Of a stretch of 64,000 nt of DNA, positions 15,673 through 55,331 are shown piece by piece (the first letter of the stretch is position 1; every line of letters starts with the position of its first letter). This DNA comes from an uncultured Gammaproteobacteria bacterium (GTDB lineage: Bacteria > Patescibacteriota > Patescibacteriia > UBA11705 > JABHMO01): the NCBI GenBank assembly GCA_964565345.1, contig CAZMEQ010000005.1, positions 275-64,274 on the forward strand, in the 5' to 3' direction. The translations under genes were made by a program, and so were the position numbers. The notes under the pieces are model-generated. The model searched no databases and was not told the origin of the DNA. It saw only the letters and a list, made by a program, of their open reading frames with translations.

Positions 15673-16011
15673 ATGATCCTGTTTGTCGATGATACTCCAG
15701 ACATCCTGCAATTGTACGGTGCCCTTGCTCATGGGCTTAAACACCGAAAGGAGTCTTGTCCCAAGGAAGCTCTGTCACACCTCCAAAGCAACCCCGCTAG
15801 AGTAATCGTCACAGATTACCAAATGCCTGGAATGAGTGGCAAGCAGTTTATCGCTGCTGCTCGCAACTATTGTCCAAACGCCAGATACATCATGGTCACA
15901 GGGACTCCGCCTGATCACTTTGCCGACAACGAGCGCCCCGATGAGCTCATTACCAAGCCCTTTGATGTACTCGCCCTACGCTCCAAGCTTAAGGCACTAG
16001 TCTCTCACTAG
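15673..16011 (+). CDS. stand-alone CheY-like response-regulator receiver domain
   Basis: 112 aa; VDDTPD acidic pocket, phospho-acceptor Asp in VIVTDYQMPGMSG, conserved MVTGT and TKPF Lys. About 50% GC versus about 33% in flanks. Confidence 0.7.
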   Translation: MILFVDDTPDILQLYGALAHGLKHRKESCPKEALSHLQSNPARVIVTDYQMPGMSGKQFIAAARNYCPNARYIMVTGTPPDHFADNERPDELITKPFDVLALRSKLKALVSH

Positions 16012-30795: not shown

Positions 30796-31413
30796 TCAAG
30801 CGGTCCGACTTTCGCAGTGCAGTGGCAGCAAGCGCGGTATGTTGAAATCTCCGCCATTGAAGTGCAGCCCCTGGTCGAAGAGCTGAAGTCGTTCGTCACA
30901 CCGCAACTCCACTAGAATGCGCGTTTCCAGCGCATTCTTTTCGATTACGTGAACGCGCTCTTGTCCTATCGTCTCCATCAAGGTGGAAACATGCAGTGGG
31001 TTAGGACGGCTCCACTGAAGAAGCAAGAGCTGACTACGCCTCTGCAGTTCAGTTGGAACCCGATCGGGCAGAAGAAGCAATATGCGGCGCCGGTCTTGCT
31101 GGTAGATGACCATCTGAACCAGGCGTATTGCTCCGATCTCGTTGTAAGGGACTGGTAACTGATGCGGACCGGTGTAGGTGACACGTTCTCGATTGTGCAA
31201 CGGGAAGGCCCGGCACAACTCTGCTTGGGTTGGGTAGCGTGATGCTGCACCCGTGTCGTGTGCGTACACTACCAGTAGCTTGTTCCTGGTGTCGCTTAGT
31301 CCAAAGCAGATGTAGGAACCAACAAAGCGCACCATGACCTTGCTTGTCATGAACAAGGCCCAGAACGCGCTTGAAAGTTGCACGGGTGTGGCAGCAGGAT
31401 CTGAAACGTTCAT
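30796..31413 (-). CDS. hypothetical protein with DTGA (retropepsin-like) tetrapeptide
   Basis: 205-aa ORF in a 55% GC segment; AGGAGG SD 6 nt upstream; TTGACA-17-TATGCT promoter upstream; only recognisable feature is VVYAHDTGAAS. Confidence 0.45.
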   Translation of the reverse strand: MNVSDPAATPVQLSSAFWALFMTSKVMVRFVGSYICFGLSDTRNKLLVVYAHDTGAASRYPTQAELCRAFPLHNRERVTYTGPHQLPVPYNEIGAIRLVQMVIYQQDRRRILLLLPDRVPTELQRRSQLLLLQWSRPNPLHVSTLMETIGQERVHVIEKNALETRILVELRCDERLQLFDQGLHFNGGDFNIPRLLPLHCESRTA

Positions 31414-31545: not shown

Positions 31546-33081
31546 CTACTTGCGCTTGCTCCCGGAGACCAGCAGGGCGCCGTCCTTGCCCAGGGTCTCG
31601 TCGATCTCGCCGGTGGCGGAGAGGAAGGCCTCGAGGGTCTGACCCTCGGGCGTCGCCTTGTACGCCTGCGCGGCGTCGGCCTTGGCCTGTTCGACCTGGG
31701 TGACCCAGCGGCGGGTCAGCCAGTCGTAGGCCCAGGGGGTGGTCTTCGCCTGGAAGTTGGTGCGCGCCGCGTGCATGGCCAGCACCTGGTCCACGATCGA
31801 CTCGTGCACGACCAGGTAGCGCCAGCCCACGTCGCGGAAGCTGCGGCGGATGACCATGAGGCTGAGCCTCGGGGTGGCCTTGGCGTCCTTGGCGCGGTCT
31901 CGGAGCTGCTGGACGAAGCGGAGGTGGTCGGAAACGTCCTTGGGGGGACGCACGGCCAGCTCCACGTCGTACACGCCCTTGAACCGCTTCCAGCGCGGCT
32001 CGAACTCCTTGACCTCGCCCTCGGTGGGGAGCATCAGGAGCTCGTGCGACTTGGCCTCGTCGAGGCCCGCGGTCCAGACCGGCGCCTTGAGCGGGGACGT
32101 GTAGCTGCCGAGCTGCTGCTCGGTCAGCCAGTTGTCCGCGTTGTCCAGCGCCTCGATGGCGTTGCCGACGGCCGTCTCGCGGCGGGCCTTGCGGTCCTCC
32201 GCGGCGCGGGCCGCCTTGCCTTCGTCGATCTGCCGCTTGTAGCCGGCGCAGAGCCGGTTCCAGGCGGTGCGCAGCGGCATGACCTCGACGATCACGTCGC
32301 TGTTGCCCGCGAACTTCGCCTTGGCCGCCGTGGCCGCGATGGCCAGGTGCTCCTCGCAGAAGATCCGGGCGACCGTGGTGTTCTCCTTGGTGTTGCTGAT
32401 CACGAGCACGAAGGCCGTGTCGATGACGAGGGAGCCCTTGTGTCCTCCGGCGAAGCACATCTCGCACCGGATCAACACCCCGCGGATGAACAGCGCGTTC
32501 TGGGGCACGCCGCCTTCCGGCAGCTTGTCCCAGATGTCGCGGATCTGGGCGGGGTTGGTCAGGACCAGCGGCTCGCCCTCGAGACCCAGGTCCAGGGGGA
32601 CCTGGGTACGGGGGGCCATCACGGGAGCCTTCTGGACGGTGACCTTCGCGGTCGGCTTGCGCTCTTCGCACTTGCCGCCACACTCGCTGGTGCCGCACTT
32701 GCCGGCGGCGCAGCACGGGGGCTGCTCGGCCTTGGCGCTCAGCTCGGTGCTGAGTTCCTCTACCGTGCGACCCTGCTTGGCCAGGGCGCGCGCGAGCGCG
32801 TCGCCCATGACCGTGCCAGGGAGGCGGGGGCCGGTGGCGGCGGGTGCCGCGCACTTCTTGGCCTTCTTCTCCGGGGCCGGGGCGGGCGCGGGGGTGGGCT
32901 CGGGCAGGTTGGAGATGGCGGCGTTCAGGACGATCTCGGCGATGGAGCTGTTCAGCCCCGCCGCCTTGAGCGCGTCCTTCCCTCCGTCGACGATCTTCTT
33001 GGCGTCGTCGAGACCGGCCATGGCGAGCTTCCGAATGGTCGCTTCGCCGATTCCCTTGGTGCTGCTGAGCTTGTCGAACAT
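31546..33081 (-). CDS. hypothetical protein, N-terminal HhH-like motif, Pro/Ala linker, Cys cluster (about 70% GC)
   Basis: 511-aa ORF with strong GC3 bias; CAAGGAGG SD upstream; GIGEATIRKLAMAGL HhH-like, PAPAPAPEKKAKK linker, CCAAGKCGTSECGGKC. Other frames here are Arg/Gly-rich GC artefacts. Confidence 0.55.
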   Translation of the reverse strand: MFDKLSSTKGIGEATIRKLAMAGLDDAKKIVDGGKDALKAAGLNSSIAEIVLNAAISNLPEPTPAPAPAPEKKAKKCAAPAATGPRLPGTVMGDALARALAKQGRTVEELSTELSAKAEQPPCCAAGKCGTSECGGKCEERKPTAKVTVQKAPVMAPRTQVPLDLGLEGEPLVLTNPAQIRDIWDKLPEGGVPQNALFIRGVLIRCEMCFAGGHKGSLVIDTAFVLVISNTKENTTVARIFCEEHLAIAATAAKAKFAGNSDVIVEVMPLRTAWNRLCAGYKRQIDEGKAARAAEDRKARRETAVGNAIEALDNADNWLTEQQLGSYTSPLKAPVWTAGLDEAKSHELLMLPTEGEVKEFEPRWKRFKGVYDVELAVRPPKDVSDHLRFVQQLRDRAKDAKATPRLSLMVIRRSFRDVGWRYLVVHESIVDQVLAMHAARTNFQAKTTPWAYDWLTRRWVTQVEQAKADAAQAYKATPEGQTLEAFLSATGEIDETLGKDGALLVSGSKRK

Positions 33082-33325
33082 GGAGTCCTCCTTGAGTGGG
33101 TTGACAGTTGCGAACGAGAACTTACCTGGTGTTGACTACACCTTTAGAGGGTCAATTGGCCTTAACCCCAAAAAGCTAAAGTTGACACTAAGATAACAAA
33201 AAATTATAGCAAATTTACTTGGTTTTGTCAATATCTGACATCGATAAGTTGTATATAACCTAAATTTAGACAAAAATTGACGCTATGCAGCTCCGACATT
33301 TACTTATCAGACAAAATAGTTTATA

Positions 33326-38495: not shown

Positions 38496-39623
38496 CTATA
38501 TCACAATTCTTTTTATTAACGGATTTATTCTTGTCACAACCTCATAATTAATCGTTTGGAGTTTAGTGGCCACAATCTCGCATGAAATTTCTTCTGCTCC
38601 TTGAACCCCAACAAGGACAACTTCATCATTTATTTTTACTTTTTTTAGATTAGTTACATCAACCATGGTCATGTTCATGCAAACTCGCCCCACGACACGG
38701 CAACGCACCCCATTCACCAAAACTTCTCCAACACTAGATAATCCACGATCAAAGCCATCATAATACCCGACCGGAATGACAGCTATTTTACTATTTCGCA
38801 TTAGTTTTTCCGTACAGCCATATCCGACATAAGCCCCTTTAGGCAGTGTTTTTATGTGAGCAATTCGTGTTTTCCAGGTAAGCGCTGGCTTTAACCCCAA
38901 CCCAATTTTTCTATTTAAAGCACTAACTTTCGTTTCTTTTGAGGGCCATAGGCCATATAAACTTAAACCAAGACGTATAACATCGTAGTGTGTTTGGTTG
39001 AACAAAATCGCAGCCGCAGAACAAGCCGTGTGTTTTTTAAATTTTGTATATTTATGTCTTCTTATTTTGTTTAAGGCTTGCTCATATAACGCTAATTGAT
39101 TTTTTGCATAAGCAAAACTTGTCGTATCCTCAATATTAGCAAAATGTGTAAAAACGCCCGATAAGACTAAATTGTTTTTTATTGTACTTAAATACTCCCC
39201 TATTTCACTTAATTTTATTCCATTACGAGCCGTGCCTGTTTCTATTTCCAAATGCAGAAAAACTTTCAATTTTAGCTTTTTTGATATTTTGGAGATAAAA
39301 TCCAAGCTTTCTTTATTAAAAACTGTAAGCTCAAAACCGGACTTAATGACCGCCTCCATATCCCCTTCTACAATGTAGCCCAAAATAACTATCGGTTTTT
39401 GGGTATATTTTCTAACTATACAAGCCTCTGAATATGAATCAACAAAAAAATAATCAGCTTCATCCTTAAGGATATTTGCAATTTCCACCAAGCCATGGCC
39501 ATAAGCATTTGATTTAATAACTGCGCCTATTTTGACGCTAGGTGGAACTATCATCCTGAACTGATGAAAATTATATAAAATTTTTCCTTGGTCAATTTCG
39601 ACCCAGGTTCTATCTTTAATCAT
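38496..39623 (-). CDS. alr: alanine racemase
   Basis: PLP-lysine motif VIKSNAYGHG near the N-terminus; 375 aa. Confidence 0.85.
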   Translation of the reverse strand: MIKDRTWVEIDQGKILYNFHQFRMIVPPSVKIGAVIKSNAYGHGLVEIANILKDEADYFFVDSYSEACIVRKYTQKPIVILGYIVEGDMEAVIKSGFELTVFNKESLDFISKISKKLKLKVFLHLEIETGTARNGIKLSEIGEYLSTIKNNLVLSGVFTHFANIEDTTSFAYAKNQLALYEQALNKIRRHKYTKFKKHTACSAAAILFNQTHYDVIRLGLSLYGLWPSKETKVSALNRKIGLGLKPALTWKTRIAHIKTLPKGAYVGYGCTEKLMRNSKIAVIPVGYYDGFDRGLSSVGEVLVNGVRCRVVGRVCMNMTMVDVTNLKKVKINDEVVLVGVQGAEEISCEIVATKLQTINYEVVTRINPLIKRIVI

Positions 39624-48071: not shown

Positions 48072-49298
48072 TTATTTTATTATTTTTTTGATTATTCCAG
48101 TGCGCGCAACTAGTTCGGGTGTTTTCTCAGAACGTTGTTTACATTCCACCACATCTTGGGCCAATGTCTTGGTGCTGACGACCAACCGTTTTGGTAAACC
48201 AATTAAATCGCTATCTTTTAATTTTACACCCGCACTTAAGTCTCTATCATCAAAGAGTACCTCCACTCCGGCTTGTTGCAACTCCCTATATAATGCCTCA
48301 GCGGCTTGTTTTACTTCTGGTTCTGGGCCCAAATTCAATAAATGGATTTCGAAAGGCGCTACAGCTTCAGGCCAAATAAGCCCCACCGAATCTTGGTGAA
48401 TCTCGGCAATAGTTCCAACTATACGCGATGGACCGATCCCATAACACCCCATTTGGACATCGCTTTCCTGACCAGCCTCGTTGCTATATTTAAAACCAAA
48501 CGCCGTTGAGTATTTTGTTTTCAATTTAAAGATGTTGCCGACCTCAATCGCTTTATTAATTTCCCATTTTTGTCCGCACTCGCAATTTTCGGACTCTATG
48601 ATTTCTTTATTTCTGTGAATATTACATTTAGAGCAACTATAAACCAAATCTTCGCCGCTTTCAGTAAACACCTGAAATTCATGTGAGTATTTAGAAAAGG
48701 TCCCGCCGCTAGCTTCAACGATCTTGGCGTCTAAACCACAAGCATTAAAAATACGAACGTAAGCTTGCATGACAAGTTCATAATATTTATCTAAGTCTTC
48801 GATATCACGATGAAAGGAATACAGATCCTTCATGCTGAATTCGCGCCCACGCAATAAGCCCGATTTGGCTCTGGCCTCATTACGGAATTTATCTTGGATT
48901 TGATAAACAGCTCTGGGTAAATCTTTATAAGAGGAAACAAAACGCTGCAGCAAAGGTGTCACAATTTCTTCGTGTGTGGCTCCGAGTGCATATTCTTTGT
49001 CACCCATACCCTTGAGACGGAAAAGAACGTCTAAACCATCCCAACGGCCTGTTTTTTCCCAATTTTCTTTTGGAGTTAATGCGGGCATCAAAATTTCTTG
49101 CGCTCCCAAGGCGTCCATTTCTTTACGAATTATATTTTTAACTTTATTCAAAACTCGTAAACCTAAAGGCAAATAGGTATAAACACCAGCCATTAATTTA
49201 TCAACGTATCCAGCACGTATCAAAAGTTGCGCGTTCAAACTAGGCTCGTCCTTTGGCAATTCCTTAGTTGTGTGGCTAAAAAGTACGGACTGTCGCAT
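48072..49298 (-). CDS. proS: proline--tRNA ligase
   Basis: MRQSVLFSHTTKELPKDEP... aligns with the canonical ProS N-terminus. ORF-track extends to 49361, but that start would overlap the upstream gene; the ATG at 49298 is 4 nt after the upstream stop. Confidence 0.8.
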   Translation of the reverse strand: MRQSVLFSHTTKELPKDEPSLNAQLLIRAGYVDKLMAGVYTYLPLGLRVLNKVKNIIRKEMDALGAQEILMPALTPKENWEKTGRWDGLDVLFRLKGMGDKEYALGATHEEIVTPLLQRFVSSYKDLPRAVYQIQDKFRNEARAKSGLLRGREFSMKDLYSFHRDIEDLDKYYELVMQAYVRIFNACGLDAKIVEASGGTFSKYSHEFQVFTESGEDLVYSCSKCNIHRNKEIIESENCECGQKWEINKAIEVGNIFKLKTKYSTAFGFKYSNEAGQESDVQMGCYGIGPSRIVGTIAEIHQDSVGLIWPEAVAPFEIHLLNLGPEPEVKQAAEALYRELQQAGVEVLFDDRDLSAGVKLKDSDLIGLPKRLVVSTKTLAQDVVECKQRSEKTPELVARTGIIKKIIK

Positions 49299-49302
49299 AA
49301 TA

Positions 49303-49704
49303 TTACTTATTATATTTTTGATATGAAATTGAGAATAGTTCGACAAAACCAAGTAAGACAATTAAAACAGTTAAATTCCACCATGTTAAAAAGCGTTGAC
49401 TTTGGAGTAAAAGAGCAACCACAAGTAAAATAGTAAACAGAACCGCTTGTCGTGAAGCCACTTTAACATGTTTGTAGGGCAAATCATCTTTATTTAATAA
49501 TATTCGGATTAAATAACCAATAAAAGAAAAGGTGCCCAGCAAAGCTAAAATAAGACTAAAATAAAAAAGCAGTAAGGCCAAGAGACCACCACTTTGTGGC
49601 GTCATAAACATAAGAACAGCGCCCCAGGCCAACCAACACAACATTGTCCCCAACCCTAAAATCAAAAAAAATTTACCTACGCTCATATGATAGTATTCTA
49701 CCAT
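49303..49704 (-). CDS. hypothetical 4-TM membrane protein
   Basis: Four hydrophobic helices; first ATG 49704 (ORF-track TTG 49710). Confidence 0.4.
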   Translation of the reverse strand: MVEYYHMSVGKFFLILGLGTMLCWLAWGAVLMFMTPQSGGLLALLLFYFSLILALLGTFSFIGYLIRILLNKDDLPYKHVKVASRQAVLFTILLVVALLLQSQRFLTWWNLTVLIVLLGFVELFSISYQKYNK

Positions 49705-49774: not shown

Positions 49775-50113
49775 TCAGGGACGCGGCGGGTAGTGCGTCG
49801 CACGTTGGCGAGTGTCCTCGATGGCCTCCGCCAGCTCGCCGAGATTGGTCGGCATCTTGGTAAGATTGCGGAAACGCACCGGGAGACGCAAGTTGCACCC
49901 CCCACAGCACAGGACCATATTCTGATCGGTGATCTTGTGGGGACGCATCGGTCCGCCACAGTACGGCTTGTGAAAAAGCCAGTACGGACCATCGATGGGA
50001 ATGGAGAGCCATTCCGCCTTCTGCTCACGACCGACCATGATCTCGAAGCTACCTTCGTCATCCGGAACATCCGGCAACATGCACTCGGCCACGACGACCC
50101 TATTCGATTCCAT
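49775..50113 (-). CDS. Cys-rich small protein (112 aa), hypothetical metal-binding
   Basis: ATG at 50113 preceded by AGGGAGG (5-nt spacer); motif PYCGGPMRPH...VLCCGGCNL; the competing plus-strand frame starts with TTG and is Arg-rich. Confidence 0.45.
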   Translation of the reverse strand: MESNRVVVAECMLPDVPDDEGSFEIMVGREQKAEWLSIPIDGPYWLFHKPYCGGPMRPHKITDQNMVLCCGGCNLRLPVRFRNLTKMPTNLGELAEAIEDTRQRATHYPPRP

Positions 50114-50125
50114 TGCAACCTCCCT

Positions 50126-50141
50126 GCGGTCTAAAGACCGC
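50126..50141. promoter_or_regulatory. perfect palindrome GCGGTCT-AA-AGACCGC upstream of the Cys-rich gene SD
   Basis: 7-bp inverted repeat with 2-bp spacer immediately 5' of the AGGGAGG SD; no T-run, so operator-like rather than terminator. Confidence 0.35.
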
Positions 50142-50157
50142 ATAGCAACCTTTATTT

Positions 50158-50481: not shown

Positions 50482-50556
50482 ATTGACTCTTTAACGTTTT
50501 TATGATAAATTAATCTGTCCTGTCGTAAAGGACGAAACTTTTTAATGGAGGCTACG

Positions 50557-51177
50557 ATGTCACGCTTCATTTCCCTGCTCCTGGCCTTGTGCCTGACAAA
50601 CCTGCCCTTTCTCGCCCACAGCGAGGAAGTCGAATCCAACGGACAGATCCTCCTGATCGTGGGTCGCAACTTCGCCCCCTTCCAGGTAAGCGAGGGCATC
50701 AGAGGTGCCGTCTACGCGCACATTGGAGCCATGGCCAGTGTACGTGGCAACGCCATGGTCTTTGGGTATGTCGGACCGGAGTTCACCTTTACATCGCAGA
50801 CCAACCTGAAGATGTTGACAGGGACCTGGCTGACCAAGGACGGCGGCATGAGCGCCATCGCCAGCCTCTGGCTGACCCAGCCCTTGCCCGGAGACGTCAC
50901 CGTCTTCTTGGAGGGTGACGCCTACTTCCCGATCGACGGAGACGGCGGGCACCGCCAGCGCAACTACTACACGTTCGTATCGCTGGACTGGTTCCCCAAG
51001 GGCAACGTCGTCGGGCTGGGCGTGGTACAGGAGAACTTCTTCTCGGAGAAGGTCTTCGAGGAAGCGGCCATCGGCCCCTCCCTGCTCTTCGACAAGGGCC
51101 GCATCTGGCTGGCCTACGACATGAGCCCCGACCTGCCCGGCGCGCAGATCTACCTGCGACTCGTCCTCACGCTCTGA
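50557..51177 (+). CDS. secreted beta-rich hypothetical protein
   Basis: GGAGG 5 nt upstream of ATG 50557; signal peptide MSRFISLLLALCLTNLPFLAHS; alternating hydrophobic pattern. ORF-track ATG 50545 is also possible. Confidence 0.5.
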   Translation: MSRFISLLLALCLTNLPFLAHSEEVESNGQILLIVGRNFAPFQVSEGIRGAVYAHIGAMASVRGNAMVFGYVGPEFTFTSQTNLKMLTGTWLTKDGGMSAIASLWLTQPLPGDVTVFLEGDAYFPIDGDGGHRQRNYYTFVSLDWFPKGNVVGLGVVQENFFSEKVFEEAAIGPSLLFDKGRIWLAYDMSPDLPGAQIYLRLVLTL

Positions 51178-51227: not shown

Positions 51228-51256
51228 TTGACAAATTCATTAAAATATAATAATAT
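51228..51256 (+). promoter_or_regulatory. consensus-like sigma70 promoter TTGACA-17-TAATAT in an AT-rich patch within the GC-rich island
   Basis: ttgacaaattcattaaaatataataatat; followed by palindrome GCTGACGAA-gt-TTCGTCAGC (51268..51286) and a GGAGGA SD before ATG 51318. Confidence 0.5.
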
Positions 51257-51317
51257 ATAGCCAGTTTGCTGACGAAGTTCGTCAGCATTTTCGGTAGCCG
51301 CTTGAACGGAGGAATCC

Positions 51318-51719
51318 ATGAAGCGCATCGTCCACTCGCTGTTCGCCGTCCTGGTGCTCCTCGGGCTCTCCAACACCGCCATCGCGGGCGGTGGGCCGCC
51401 CCAGACCTTCGCCGACTACAAGTACCTCGCCGAGCAGTACATCACCCCGCAGATCGCCTACTTCAACCTGACGGGCGAGCTGCAGTACTGGTCCGAGACA
51501 CCTTGCGTGGGCTGGACCAACATGACGGACAACCTGCAGTACTACTTCGAGTACGAGGCGCAGTTCCGCAGCGCCGCCGCGCAGGCCGTCACCGCCAACA
51601 GCTGGGCCATCAAGTACGCCCTGAAGACCGGCGAGAACCTGGCCGTGGTGCCGACCTACAAGCTGAACCGCCTGAAGGCGCAGCAGAAGCTCGCGCTCAT
51701 GGACCAGTGGCACGCCTAG
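51318..51719 (+). CDS. secreted hypothetical protein (N-terminal part of an interrupted gene)
   Basis: Signal peptide MKRIVHSLFAVLVLLGLSNTAIAGG; GC3-rich; ends at TAG 51717..51719 and continues in the same frame at 51720. Confidence 0.5.
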   Translation: MKRIVHSLFAVLVLLGLSNTAIAGGGPPQTFADYKYLAEQYITPQIAYFNLTGELQYWSETPCVGWTNMTDNLQYYFEYEAQFRSAAAQAVTANSWAIKYALKTGENLAVVPTYKLNRLKAQQKLALMDQWHA

Positions 51720-51722
51720 TTC

Positions 51723-52310
51723 ATGACGTTCTACGCCGAGACGGCGTGGGGTCTCCGCACCTTCTACTGCTCGACCGAGCAGATGTGCGTGCAGCCGCCC
51801 CAGCCGCAGACCAGCAAGGTCTACGTCAACAAGACCTCGGTCACCCCGCAGATCGTCTACGGCGTGCACCGGCACCTCTTCGGCTTCAACCTCTCGATGA
51901 ACTCGGACGGCGCGATCTACTCCGAGGACGGGCTGCTCTACATGGTCGACCTCTCGGTCATGATGACCGGGGACGCCTTCGAGCAGCTCACGAACTGCAC
52001 CCTCGAGACGAACGACGGCTTCGCCTTCGTGCTCGACACCGCAACGCCCTACTTCGTCGAAGAAGTCGGCGGTGCGCGGCTGACATTCAAGCTCGACGAT
52101 CCGTACGTGATCCCCGAGAACACGACGCAGGGCTTCAACGTCTTCTGCCAGATCAACCCGCCCGTGCAGGAGTACAGCTACATCGAGATCGGCTTCATGC
52201 CGACGCTCGGGACCGGGCCGATCAACGCGATCCTGGTCCAGGGGGCCAACACCAACTGGCAGTTGGAGGTCACCCCCAACATGCACATCTCGACGGTGCT
52301 CACGAACTGA
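51723..52310 (+). CDS. hypothetical protein, in-frame continuation of 51318..51719 after a single TAG
   Basis: Same reading frame and same GC3 bias as the upstream ORF; no SD of its own; six N-x-S/T sequons across the two parts. Confidence 0.45.
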   Translation: MTFYAETAWGLRTFYCSTEQMCVQPPQPQTSKVYVNKTSVTPQIVYGVHRHLFGFNLSMNSDGAIYSEDGLLYMVDLSVMMTGDAFEQLTNCTLETNDGFAFVLDTATPYFVEEVGGARLTFKLDDPYVIPENTTQGFNVFCQINPPVQEYSYIEIGFMPTLGTGPINAILVQGANTNWQLEVTPNMHISTVLTN

Positions 52311-52322
52311 CCCCGCGGCCAC

Positions 52323-52356
52323 GCCGCATGACGCCACGCAAACACAAGTTTGCGTG
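52323..52356. terminator. bidirectional rho-independent terminator
   Basis: GCCACGCAAAC-acaa-GTTTGCGTGGC followed by TCTTTTTT; sits between the island C end and the stop of the minus-strand helicase. Confidence 0.65.
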
Positions 52357-52364
52357 GCTCTTTT

Positions 52365-55331
52365 TTATAACTTTTTATGTTCACAAATATTACGATAATC
52401 ACAACTGCCACAAACAAAAGGACTTGGTGTTGGATCAAATTTCTGCGCTTTTATACTCTCAATATCTTCTATAAAATTTTCTTTTAACTTTAACTTATCC
52501 TTTTCTTGACCAAAAAATGATATCTTTTTATTTTCTTCCAAATAATGATAGGTCATTTGATTAACCTTTAACTTCAACGCTTCTTCGGCTGCTATTTGAT
52601 AGAACAAAAGTTGACGTTTATCATCGGCAGTTAATTTTTCATCTTTTGCCTGACCGGTTTTATAATCTATAATTTCAACAGTACTATTAGTAGAATTATC
52701 CACCCGATCAATTCGTCCCATAAAAGAGTAATCGCCTACCATTAATTTAAACGGCAATTCTAAAAACTTAACATCTGGTTGTTGCGTATTAAAATCTGCA
52801 TAAAAAGTTTTCAATAAATTCTTTCCTTTTTTATAGTAGGCTGTTTTTTGTACTTCATCTTGGAACCAATCATCAAACCAAATGTCATCATAGATGCGCC
52901 ATAAATCTTCTAGTGGCAATGTACTCTTTTTCTTTTCTGTTTTTAAATTACTAAACAGATCATGTTGAACAACATTATTTATTTGGAATGACTCCTCTAA
53001 AAACTTTTGAAGAGTGTTGTGAATTATAGTTCCAAAAGTAAAATAATGATTACCAAAAGTTGGTATTTTAAGTATATTCGAATACTTATATTGCAAGGGG
53101 CATTTTTCGTAACTAGCAATTTGTGAAAAACTGAATTTCTTTGGGATCTCGTATACAAAACTTTGCTTTGTTTCTGGCTTAGCCTTAGCCTCAACTAAAT
53201 TTTCCAATTTAATATCTTGCTTTGTATACCCCAACTCATTCAAAAAGCGCGAAAGCTTTTTCTTTCTCACTCCGCCACAATCCTCAGCGGAACTGAAGAA
53301 CAATCCCTTTCTGGCCCTGGTCATGGCCACGTAAAAAAGCCTTCTTTCTTCTTCTAAATGAAAATTACCTTCGGGAATCTTTTCTTTAATCAAGGCTGGC
53401 GGGATCTCAATAGCCTCGTGACGTTCATCTGTGGGGAATTTTCTATCTACAAGATTAGGAATAAATACATAATCAAATTCCAACCCCTTTGCCCCATGGA
53501 CAGTCATAATCCGTACCATGTCGGGCCCTGTTTCCGGATCAAAAGCTAGGCTACCCACATCTCCGGCTTGTAATTCTAAATCAAAAACCTCAACTACGTC
53601 TTTTATGCGTGGATCTTCATAAGCAATTTCTATTTCTTTTATTTTTTGGAAAAATTGTTGTAAAAAATCTAGATTTTCTTTGGCTATTTTATCGGATTGA
53701 TTCTTTATATATTCCAAATAGCCGGAATCGTACAAAAAGGCCAATAAAACCTCAGTGGGTTTTTTGGTTTGAGCCATTATAGTATCTGCTTCAATGCGAC
53801 TAAAAATCTTACCTACGGTGGTTATAGTATGCATTTCTAACTCAGGAATAGCTACAACTTTTTTTAACGTTTCGTATAATGGCGCACCCTTTTGTTTAGC
53901 ATAATGAACGATTTTCACTATTTGATCGGCACGCAACTTAAAACAAGGAAAGTTTAGGACTCGGTAAACGGCTGCATGTTCGTGATAATTATCTAAGAGT
54001 TTAAAATAATTTAGCAAATCAACAATAATAGATTTGGTATATAGTCCTTTTAAAGCTAAAAATTGATAAGGGATACCGGCCGCATCTAGGGCGTTGGCAA
54101 AATTATTGGCAGTGTCATTAGCACGCACTAAAATAGCAAAATCAGACCATTCAGCAGACTTAGATTTTTTTAAATCGATTATTTTTCGGACCACAAACTG
54201 AGCCTCAGACTCGATATTTTCAAAATGGTTATGCTCTATAGTTCCTGGCTCTTTTTTGTTAGAAATTAACTTCTTATTGATTTTTAACTTCTCTTCAAGT
54301 CGATTGGGATTATTTTGAACAATAAACTTATAAGCCAAATCTAAAATTTCCTGGTTAGAACGATAATTTTCTGTAAGCACAACCTCTTTGGCCGAAGGAA
54401 AATCTGATTTAAATTGCATGATATTGCTAATCGAAGCTCCCCGAAATTTATAAATCGACTGATCATCATCCCCAACCACAGTTAAATTGTTTTTAGGAGC
54501 CGAAAGCATTTTTATTAGCTCATACTGGACCAAATTTGTGTCTTGGAACTCGTCCACCAACAGATATTTAAATTGGCGTCTATATTTTTCTAAAATCAAT
54601 GGTCTTTCGGTGAATAATCTTATTGTATAGCTAATTAAATCAGCAAAATCTAAACAGTCATTTTCTAAAAGAATCTGCTCATAGAGGTGAAAAGCCTGAG
54701 CAACTTCAGTAACGCGCATAATTTCGGACTTAAGTAATTCTTTTTGGTCGGTTTTTGTAAGCTGTTCAAACGTGTCGGGCAAATCTAAGCTCTTTATAAA
54801 AGCAGTAGAATCGGTGTCTAATTTTATTTTTTCGGCATACTCCAAATATTGCTCTGGCGTTATGCCTTCATCTTTACAACGTGAAAAATGTTTTAGCAAG
54901 GCATGAATAAATTTAGTTGGATTTCCCAATGGACGATAGTAATCCAAGTTAAACCGATTAAGATTCTTTTTAACTAAAAGCCATGTTTCAGTTTCATTCA
55001 GAAGCTTATAATTATTACTAAGACCAATGTCCAATGCATGTCGTTTTAAAACTTTGTCACAAAAAGAATGGAAGGTAGAAATCCACAGGTCAACATAGCC
55101 ATAAGGCAACATCTGATCAACTCGTTCTTCCATTTCCTCAGCGGCTTTTTCGGTAAAAGTAAGAGCCAGGATTTCATCAACATTAACTTGTTTTTCGGTA
55201 ATTAAATAAGCAATGCGCGTGGTAATAACACGTGTTTTTCCTGTGCCAGCGCCTGCAACTATTAGTAACGGCCCTTGATCATGTTTAATAGCCTCAAGCT
55301 GCTCTTTATTTGAAGTATCCAATAGGCTCAT
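52365..55331 (-). CDS. UvrD/PcrA-family helicase with C-terminal PD-(D/E)xK Fe-S nuclease domain (AddA/Cas4-like)
   Basis: Walker A AGAGTGKT; UvrD motifs; C-terminal RIDRVD...EIIDYKTG plus EKCP...CGSCDYRNIC Cys cluster. Confidence 0.8.
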   Translation of the reverse strand: MSLLDTSNKEQLEAIKHDQGPLLIVAGAGTGKTRVITTRIAYLITEKQVNVDEILALTFTEKAAEEMEERVDQMLPYGYVDLWISTFHSFCDKVLKRHALDIGLSNNYKLLNETETWLLVKKNLNRFNLDYYRPLGNPTKFIHALLKHFSRCKDEGITPEQYLEYAEKIKLDTDSTAFIKSLDLPDTFEQLTKTDQKELLKSEIMRVTEVAQAFHLYEQILLENDCLDFADLISYTIRLFTERPLILEKYRRQFKYLLVDEFQDTNLVQYELIKMLSAPKNNLTVVGDDDQSIYKFRGASISNIMQFKSDFPSAKEVVLTENYRSNQEILDLAYKFIVQNNPNRLEEKLKINKKLISNKKEPGTIEHNHFENIESEAQFVVRKIIDLKKSKSAEWSDFAILVRANDTANNFANALDAAGIPYQFLALKGLYTKSIIVDLLNYFKLLDNYHEHAAVYRVLNFPCFKLRADQIVKIVHYAKQKGAPLYETLKKVVAIPELEMHTITTVGKIFSRIEADTIMAQTKKPTEVLLAFLYDSGYLEYIKNQSDKIAKENLDFLQQFFQKIKEIEIAYEDPRIKDVVEVFDLELQAGDVGSLAFDPETGPDMVRIMTVHGAKGLEFDYVFIPNLVDRKFPTDERHEAIEIPPALIKEKIPEGNFHLEEERRLFYVAMTRARKGLFFSSAEDCGGVRKKKLSRFLNELGYTKQDIKLENLVEAKAKPETKQSFVYEIPKKFSFSQIASYEKCPLQYKYSNILKIPTFGNHYFTFGTIIHNTLQKFLEESFQINNVVQHDLFSNLKTEKKKSTLPLEDLWRIYDDIWFDDWFQDEVQKTAYYKKGKNLLKTFYADFNTQQPDVKFLELPFKLMVGDYSFMGRIDRVDNSTNSTVEIIDYKTGQAKDEKLTADDKRQLLFYQIAAEEALKLKVNQMTYHYLEENKKISFFGQEKDKLKLKENFIEDIESIKAQKFDPTPSPFVCGSCDYRNICEHKKL

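Follow-up and report, generated by a model that had tools for sequence, protein, structure and literature searches.

Two adjacent open reading frames (ORFs) at 51318..51719 (133 aa, ATG start) and 51723..52310 (195 aa) share one frame in the window, the whole 64,000-nucleotide stretch of DNA analysed here, and only TAG-TTC-ATG lies between them. This arrangement raises the question of whether two small genes stand side by side or one gene has been interrupted, and, if the latter, whether the stop is a recent nonsense mutation, a sequencing error or a site of readthrough or recoding, which are the options that a first-pass annotation of the locus had offered. As detailed below, the span is very probably a single secreted-protein gene that carries a recent G→T nonsense polymorphism, and the window would thus hold a truncated or null allele of it.

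One reading frame across the stop

The window reads ...CAC GCC TAG TTC ATG ACG... at 51711..51728, with GCC TAG TTC ATG at 51714..51725. Across 51318..52310 the GC content of codon positions 1, 2 and 3 is 0.54, 0.39 and 0.97, and this periodicity makes the reading frame unambiguous; GC3 is 0.98 upstream of the TAG and 0.96 downstream. Two further frames are open across the region by chance (402 aa on the + strand and 351 aa on the − strand), which is an automatic by-product of a GC3 near 1. Both were rejected as the true gene, since the GC3 periodicity and the homology fall in the frame of the split pair. No GGAGG-like motif is present within 20 nt upstream of the ATG at 51723, and the downstream ORF begins with MTFYAETAWG..., which by inspection is not a signal peptide. 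The first-pass annotation had described one secreted protein of about 329 aa divided by TAG-TTC-ATG, with a downstream part that lacks a Shine-Dalgarno sequence and a signal peptide of its own and continues the same GC3-biased codon usage. That description is borne out in each of these respects.

Table 1. Positions of the split gene and its signals, of the differences between alleles, and of the GC-rich ORFs in the window
Feature	Position	Strand	Basis or remark
Sigma-70-like promoter (TTGACA, 17 nt, TAATAT; TATAAT also in the stretch), in DNA of 14% GC	51228..51256	+	Consensus scan; putative
5'-proximal leader hairpin, TGCTGACGA-AGT-TCGTCAGCA, then TTTT	51267..51287	+	
Shine-Dalgarno GGAGG, 5 nt before ATG	51308..51312	+	Invariant in 6-sequence alignment
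Sec signal peptide (MKRIVHSLFAVLVLLGLSNTAIA), predicted	51318..51386	+	By inspection: n/h/c regions, AIA|GGG; helix 2-21 in model
Codons 1-133 (signal peptide, helices 1-2, first half of helix 3)	51318..51716	+	ORF, homology, model
Difference 1 between alleles	51500	+	Window ACA, L012 ACC; synonymous; window state derived
Difference 2 between alleles	51717	+	Window TAG, L012 GAG; stop versus Glu134; window state derived
Premature TAG, codon 134	51717..51719	+	GAG (Glu) in L012 and L006, CAG (Gln) in L001
Codons 135-330 and TGA stop (rest of helix 3, linker, C-terminal beta-sandwich)	51720..52310	+	Not an independent gene
ATG taken as start of the 'second ORF'	51723..51725	+	Internal Met136, also in the intact allele (…HAEFMTFY…)
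Difference 3 between alleles	52159	+	Window CCG Pro281 (also L002), L012 CAG Gln; window state derived
Intrinsic terminator, 11-bp stem then TCTTTTTT	52333..52358	+	
GC-rich ORF (split gene)	51318-52310	+	GC3 0.97
GC-rich ORF	50545-51177	+	GC3 0.85
GC-rich ORF	49775-50143	−	GC3 0.72
GC-rich ORF	31546-33081	−	GC3 0.95
GC-rich ORF	30796-31413	−	GC3 0.61

The signals that flank the gene are listed in Table 1. The -35 hexamer of the putative promoter is kept in the orthologous loci L001, L005, L006 and L010, and a leader hairpin of different sequence occurs at the same place in L005 and L010; the hairpin of the window may act as an mRNA stabiliser or an attenuator. The intergenic segment 51160-51290, which contains the upstream terminator, the promoter and the leader hairpin, is ~90% identical to positions 2116-2250 of L001, whereas the flanking coding DNA is ~70% identical, and this difference suggests that the regulatory region is under constraint.

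Homologues are contiguous across the stop

A word-indexed search of 5.8 billion proteins returned P0002, a protein of 329 aa that aligns end to end with both ORFs (E 2e-113; 50% identity over 100% of the joined query). The two ORFs therefore belong to one gene, because a single protein aligns to both, and arguments from chance are not needed. An exhaustive HMMER search of 1.84 billion representatives yielded only 13 family members. The full-length relatives are all single proteins of 326-359 aa, 41-52% identical, from at least six independent assemblies, and P0002-P0008 run without a break over query residues 1-329. The family appears small, unnamed and fast-evolving, and is limited, as far as seen, to a Parcubacteria clade.

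The DNA loci of the relatives were drawn from Logan, JGI and GenBank (L001, L003/L009, L005/L008, L006/L007, L010 and L011), six loci in total, and none of them has an internal stop. The gene is contiguous in L001, L003, L005/L008, L006/L007 and L010, of which L005/L008 corresponds to Parcubacteria group bacterium GW2011_GWA2_40_23 (LBYP01000002.1). At the column of the stop the codon is GAG in L012 (the near-identical contig described below) and in L006, CAG in L001, AAC in L005, and ATG in L010 and L003; the aligned residue at column 134 therefore varies among E, Q, N and M. The first-pass annotation had proposed homologues as the arbiter and would have yielded to relatives that occur as two separate genes; every relative read is contiguous across 51717..51725.

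The window and the relatives have a gene order in common: prolyl-tRNA synthetase (ProRS), a small membrane protein, a small GC-rich Zn-ribbon-like protein, dciA, a secreted protein of 207-221 aa, the split gene, and a UvrD/PcrA-type helicase.

Two of these neighbours have features of their own. The helicase (52365-55331, −; 988 aa) carries a C-terminal Cas4/AddB-like nuclease domain (TIGR00372, E 5.8e-17, residues 868-984) and is thus a single-chain helicase-nuclease; its full-length identity is 66-75% in L005, L006 and L010, and 81% over a 94-residue fragment in L001. The ProRS of the window (48072-49361, −; 429 aa) aligns with that of L005 (6104-7789; 561 aa) in two blocks around a ~175-aa insertion that is found only in L005, and this insertion may be an editing domain gained or lost between close relatives.

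An intact allele and a young mutation

The downstream fragment is itself represented in public data as the 195-aa entry P0001, whose 90%-identity cluster has a second member, the 330-aa protein P0014. The contig that encodes P0014, L012 (JGI 3300076258, 1766 bp), is 99.83% identical to window 51231..52996 and differs from it at exactly three positions (Table 1). Outgroup comparison places all three changes on the window branch, and since the window states are derived, the mutation is a G→T transversion from GAG. A CAG→TAG transition, as the nearest distinct orthologue L001 would suggest, was considered and dropped, because GAG is the codon of the near-identical intact allele.

The TAG allele recurs in a further contig, L002 (JGI 3300076594, 1190 bp), which is identical to window 51592..52726, the TAG and the C at 52159 included. 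The proteins that neighbour the gene in the window are absent from the collection that holds L002; given this absence and the TAG in L002, the allele has been assembled at least twice. L002 may come from the same project as the window, and the two assemblies may in that case not be fully independent.

The end of L002 diverges from the window. After 1135 identical base pairs there are 11 mismatches in the last 65 bp (L002 positions 1136-1185, window 52727-52776), inside the helicase gene, and this end represents a segment that varies between strains or else a chimeric end of the contig.

On the strength of these contigs, the TAG is read as a strain-level nonsense polymorphism whose intact allele coexists in a sister sample. 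The first-pass annotation's option of a recent nonsense mutation is thus supported from two sides, by a 99.83%-identical contig with GAG and an intact frame of 330 aa and by distant homologues that are contiguous. The mutation appears to be very young, because the sequence downstream of the stop has not decayed (GC3 still 0.96) and only two other substitutions separate the alleles. In addition, the C-terminal part shows no excess of amino-acid changes specific to the window, with 17 against 18 for L001.

Predicted protein and the effect of truncation

By inspection, the upstream ORF starts with a classic Sec signal, MKRIVHSLFAVLVLLGLSNTAIA|GGGPP, with an AxA cleavage motif, and the AxAGGGPP motif is kept in the homologues. 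An AlphaFold2 model of P0002, built from a 13-sequence alignment (mean pLDDT 84.5), places the signal in a helix at 2-21, followed by helices at 32-52, 62-104 and 108-156, a low-confidence linker at 154-165 and a beta-sandwich at 166-328. Searches of Pfam, PHROGs, NCBIfam and PDB sequences with the split-gene protein and the other GC-rich ORFs gave no match. At the level of structure, Foldseek against the PDB relates the beta-sandwich 166-328 to cohesin modules and Ig-like adhesin/pilin domains (E 4e-6 to 1e-4). The best match has E 4e-6 and probability 1.0; TM-scores are 0.21 on the query and 0.31-0.43 on the target, and identity is 7-13%. The predicted domain is therefore described as cohesin/adhesin-like in the sense of a resemblance, not a family assignment.

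Like the cohesin and Ig-like adhesin domains that it matches (5lxv_C, 9ifr, 2jh2, 2wza), the modelled sandwich belongs to a protein that is predicted to be secreted. Unlike them, it has only modest TM-scores on the target and no match at the level of sequence, and the N-terminal three-helix bundle is foreign to those families.

Taken together, 51318..52310 would encode one Sec-secreted protein of ~330 aa, in which a three-helix bundle at the N-terminus leads into a cohesin/adhesin-like beta-sandwich. The G→T transversion at 51717 would have turned Glu134 (GAG) into an amber stop in the window strain, and translation from the ATG at 51318 would end after 133 residues, inside helix 3. The exported product would be at most a truncated helical fragment of 110 residues, with ~22 residues missing from the end of the bundle and no beta-sandwich at all, and the 195-codon 'second ORF' would be its orphaned remainder, so that loss of function is the predicted outcome. 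If ribosomes reinitiated at Met136, 3 nt past the stop, the product would have no signal peptide and would stay in the cytoplasm.

Other readings of the stop

Reinitiation is the basis of a functional fission, in which termination at the TAG and a restart at the ATG at 51723 would give a secreted helical fragment and a cytoplasmic beta-sandwich protein, both of them useful. The stop and the ATG are 3 nt apart, which would permit termination-reinitiation, the TAG allele is found in two assemblies, and continued expression would also predict a high downstream GC3 and unaccelerated amino-acid change. Because the mutation is so young, reinitiated expression is indeed compatible with the sequence; by the same token, the age of an allele that is three differences away from the intact one accounts for the lack of decay just as well. 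The position of the break speaks against a fission: in the P0002 model residue 134 lies in the middle of helix 3 (108-156), away from the domain linker at 154-165, and of the invariant cysteines (63, 151, 157, 227 and 277), which occur on both sides of the break, Cys63 would be parted from Cys151 and Cys157. Furthermore, members of the family are secreted, yet the downstream part lacks a signal peptide; Met136 occurs in the intact allele too and is not a newly evolved start; and no relative is split. A functional fission is therefore improbable.

A sequencing or assembly error, with G as the true base at 51717, would account for a single-base difference from an otherwise almost identical contig, and the first-pass annotation had listed it among its options. 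It is very unlikely, as the same T is found in L002, a separate JGI assembly that shares the C at 52159 and differs from the window elsewhere, and the site is not in a homopolymer. In addition, two further substitutions separate the same two alleles and mark them as real haplotypes.

Programmed readthrough or reassignment of TAG, through a suppressor tRNA or a code-15-like TAG=Gln, would allow the full-length protein to be made in spite of the stop. Amber recoding is known from the code-15-type TAG=Gln of some phages and from suppressor-tRNA-mediated readthrough, and Gln is the residue inserted by known amber recoding. The locus resembles these systems in that an in-frame TAG stands where one orthologue, the nearest distinct one (L001), has Gln. 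It differs from them in that the in-frame TAG occurs in one allele only, with Glu (GAG), not Gln, in the near-identical sister allele and no stop at codon 134 in any relative, and in that TAG is a regular terminator in the genome and the family. Among 60 non-overlapping ORFs of the window, the stop is TAA in 40, TAG in 10 and TGA in 10. The alanine racemase (38499..39623, −) is one that ends at TAG, at its normal end, where the Pfam C-terminal domain is matched to position 126/127, and the orthologues of the split gene in L001, L005, L006 and L010 all end in TAG at a conserved ...VLxN C-terminus.

No other gene in the window proved to be interrupted when same-frame ORF pairs with one stop between them were sought, the remaining pairs being ordinary adjacent genes or off-frame artefacts, and no suppressor tRNA (anticodon CUA) is encoded within the 64 kb, where the only tRNA is Trp-CCA. 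Downstream of the stop, RNA folding is no stronger than in shuffled sequences (z = -1.3), and the region around the stop has no Rfam match. Pyrrolysine insertion, for its part, expects pylTSBCD genes and a UAG at a conserved catalytic position of a methylamine methyltransferase-type protein; column 134 is variable, and the protein is secreted and unrelated to that type. Recoding, which the first-pass annotation had also entertained, is thus the least likely of these readings and has largely been refuted already, and the TAG has no bearing on questions of the genetic code.

GC-rich genes in an AT-rich genome

The split gene is one of at least five GC-rich ORFs in the window (Table 1), where the other genes have a GC3 of 0.21-0.39, in a genome with a GC3 of ~0.3. 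Each of these ORFs forms a unit of its own: a near-consensus promoter set in very AT-rich DNA precedes it, followed by a hairpin close to the 5' end and a GGAGG, and a strong intrinsic terminator closes it. The ORFs are interleaved with host genes, with the AT-rich dciA between two of them. In the split gene, GC-richness begins at the predicted transcript start (promoter 0.14, 5'UTR 0.51, ORF 0.63, 3'UTR 0.69). GC2 and amino-acid composition are shifted as well, with more Ala, Pro and Gly and less Lys, Ile and Asn, which points to a pressure that acts on the nucleotides.

Promoters of the TTGACA/TATAAT type in DNA of ~14% GC are seen in the window at 51228-51317, 50483-50544 and 33082-33235 (−), and also upstream of the orthologues in L001, L005, L006 and L010. 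The hairpins of the GC-rich genes lie within a few nucleotides of the predicted transcript start, and their sequence differs between lineages while their position is kept; in the window, a T-run comes after two of them. Their role may be to stabilise the mRNA as 5' stem-loops or to serve as attenuators.

The first-pass annotation spoke of a cassette, which implied a recent insertion, and a horizontally acquired island was considered on the grounds of the atypical composition. Neither holds: the GC-rich block keeps its synteny in related Parcubacteria and has been passed on vertically there. The corresponding genes of L001, L003, L005, L006, L010 and L011 are GC-rich too, the genes are syntenic in five relatives, with identity ranks that parallel those of the flanking host genes, and dciA is interleaved. 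No repeats or mobility genes were found to flank the GC-rich ORFs, and neither a DGR-type template/variable repeat pair nor mobile-element ends were found around them. At four-fold sites of conserved amino acids the window and L005 are 49% identical, which is the chance level for an alphabet of C and G only (CC 23, GG 15, CG 18 and GC 13, with 8 sites that have A or T), and the AT-rich helicase is equally saturated (34%). Since the synonymous sites have fully turned over yet are still G or C, un-ameliorated horizontal transfer is excluded, and a gene- or transcript-specific maintaining force is required.

The chances are about even, in our estimate, that the split gene belongs to an undescribed class of vertically inherited 'GC-recoded' transcription units (GC3 0.6-0.97, raised GC1 and GC2, GC-rich UTRs) whose composition is maintained by a strong gene- or transcript-specific force, and that it is a knock-out that arose naturally in one such unit. 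A full-text literature search, not an exhaustive one, found no description of GC-rich genes in Parcubacteria/CPR. As ideas only, candidate forces include a stable RNase-resistant mRNA, an otherwise idle tRNA pool and transcription-coupled biased repair. The notion that GC-rich codons enlarge the target for nonsense mutation was dropped, as codons for Leu, Ser, Arg and Gly that end in G or C lie, if anything, at a greater distance from stops.

Some of the other genes deserve mention for their own sake. The ORF at 31546-33081 (−) encodes 511 aa and is the most GC-rich stretch of the window (GC 0.69), with a TAG stop and a terminator after it. Its product contains a Pro/Ala-rich linker and has no match apart from a weak, sub-threshold helix-hairpin-helix hit at the N-terminus (Pfam HHH_5, E 0.0065). 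A small GC-rich protein of 105-125 aa with an HKPxCGGPxRP ... CxGC motif, Zn-ribbon-like by eye and without a family match, always adjoins dciA (window 49775-50143 (−), L001 692-1069, L005 8263-8580, L006 180-509). In addition, a stand-alone response-regulator receiver domain (15673-16011, +; PF00072, E 3.8e-10) has a GC of 0.51 and a GC3 of 0.55, moderately above its neighbours.

Implications

Premature-stop polymorphisms are known in bacterial surface and adhesin genes, for example as the inlA truncation alleles of Listeria monocytogenes. Like those alleles, the present one is a single nonsense SNP in a predicted Sec-exported, surface-type protein that segregates with an intact allele among near-identical strains, and its truncated product would lose the C-terminal domain. 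Unlike inlA, the gene belongs to an uncharacterised protein family, and its host is an uncultivated Parcubacteria bacterium. The finding is in this sense an ordinary one, a recent nonsense polymorphism, which is a known kind of event, in an uncharacterised secreted-protein gene.

The two ORFs should be joined in annotation under a single entry, marked as a disrupted gene with a premature-stop allele, instead of being listed as two hypothetical proteins; the public 195-aa entry P0001 is a fragment of this kind. The surrounding GC-recoded genes could be of interest to specialists in codon usage and genome composition. To conclude, an uncultivated, episymbiont-type bacterium would be able to dispense, in at least some strains, with a putative surface or adhesion protein, which would vary at the level of the population; this is the pattern expected for proteins that are exposed to hosts or phages.
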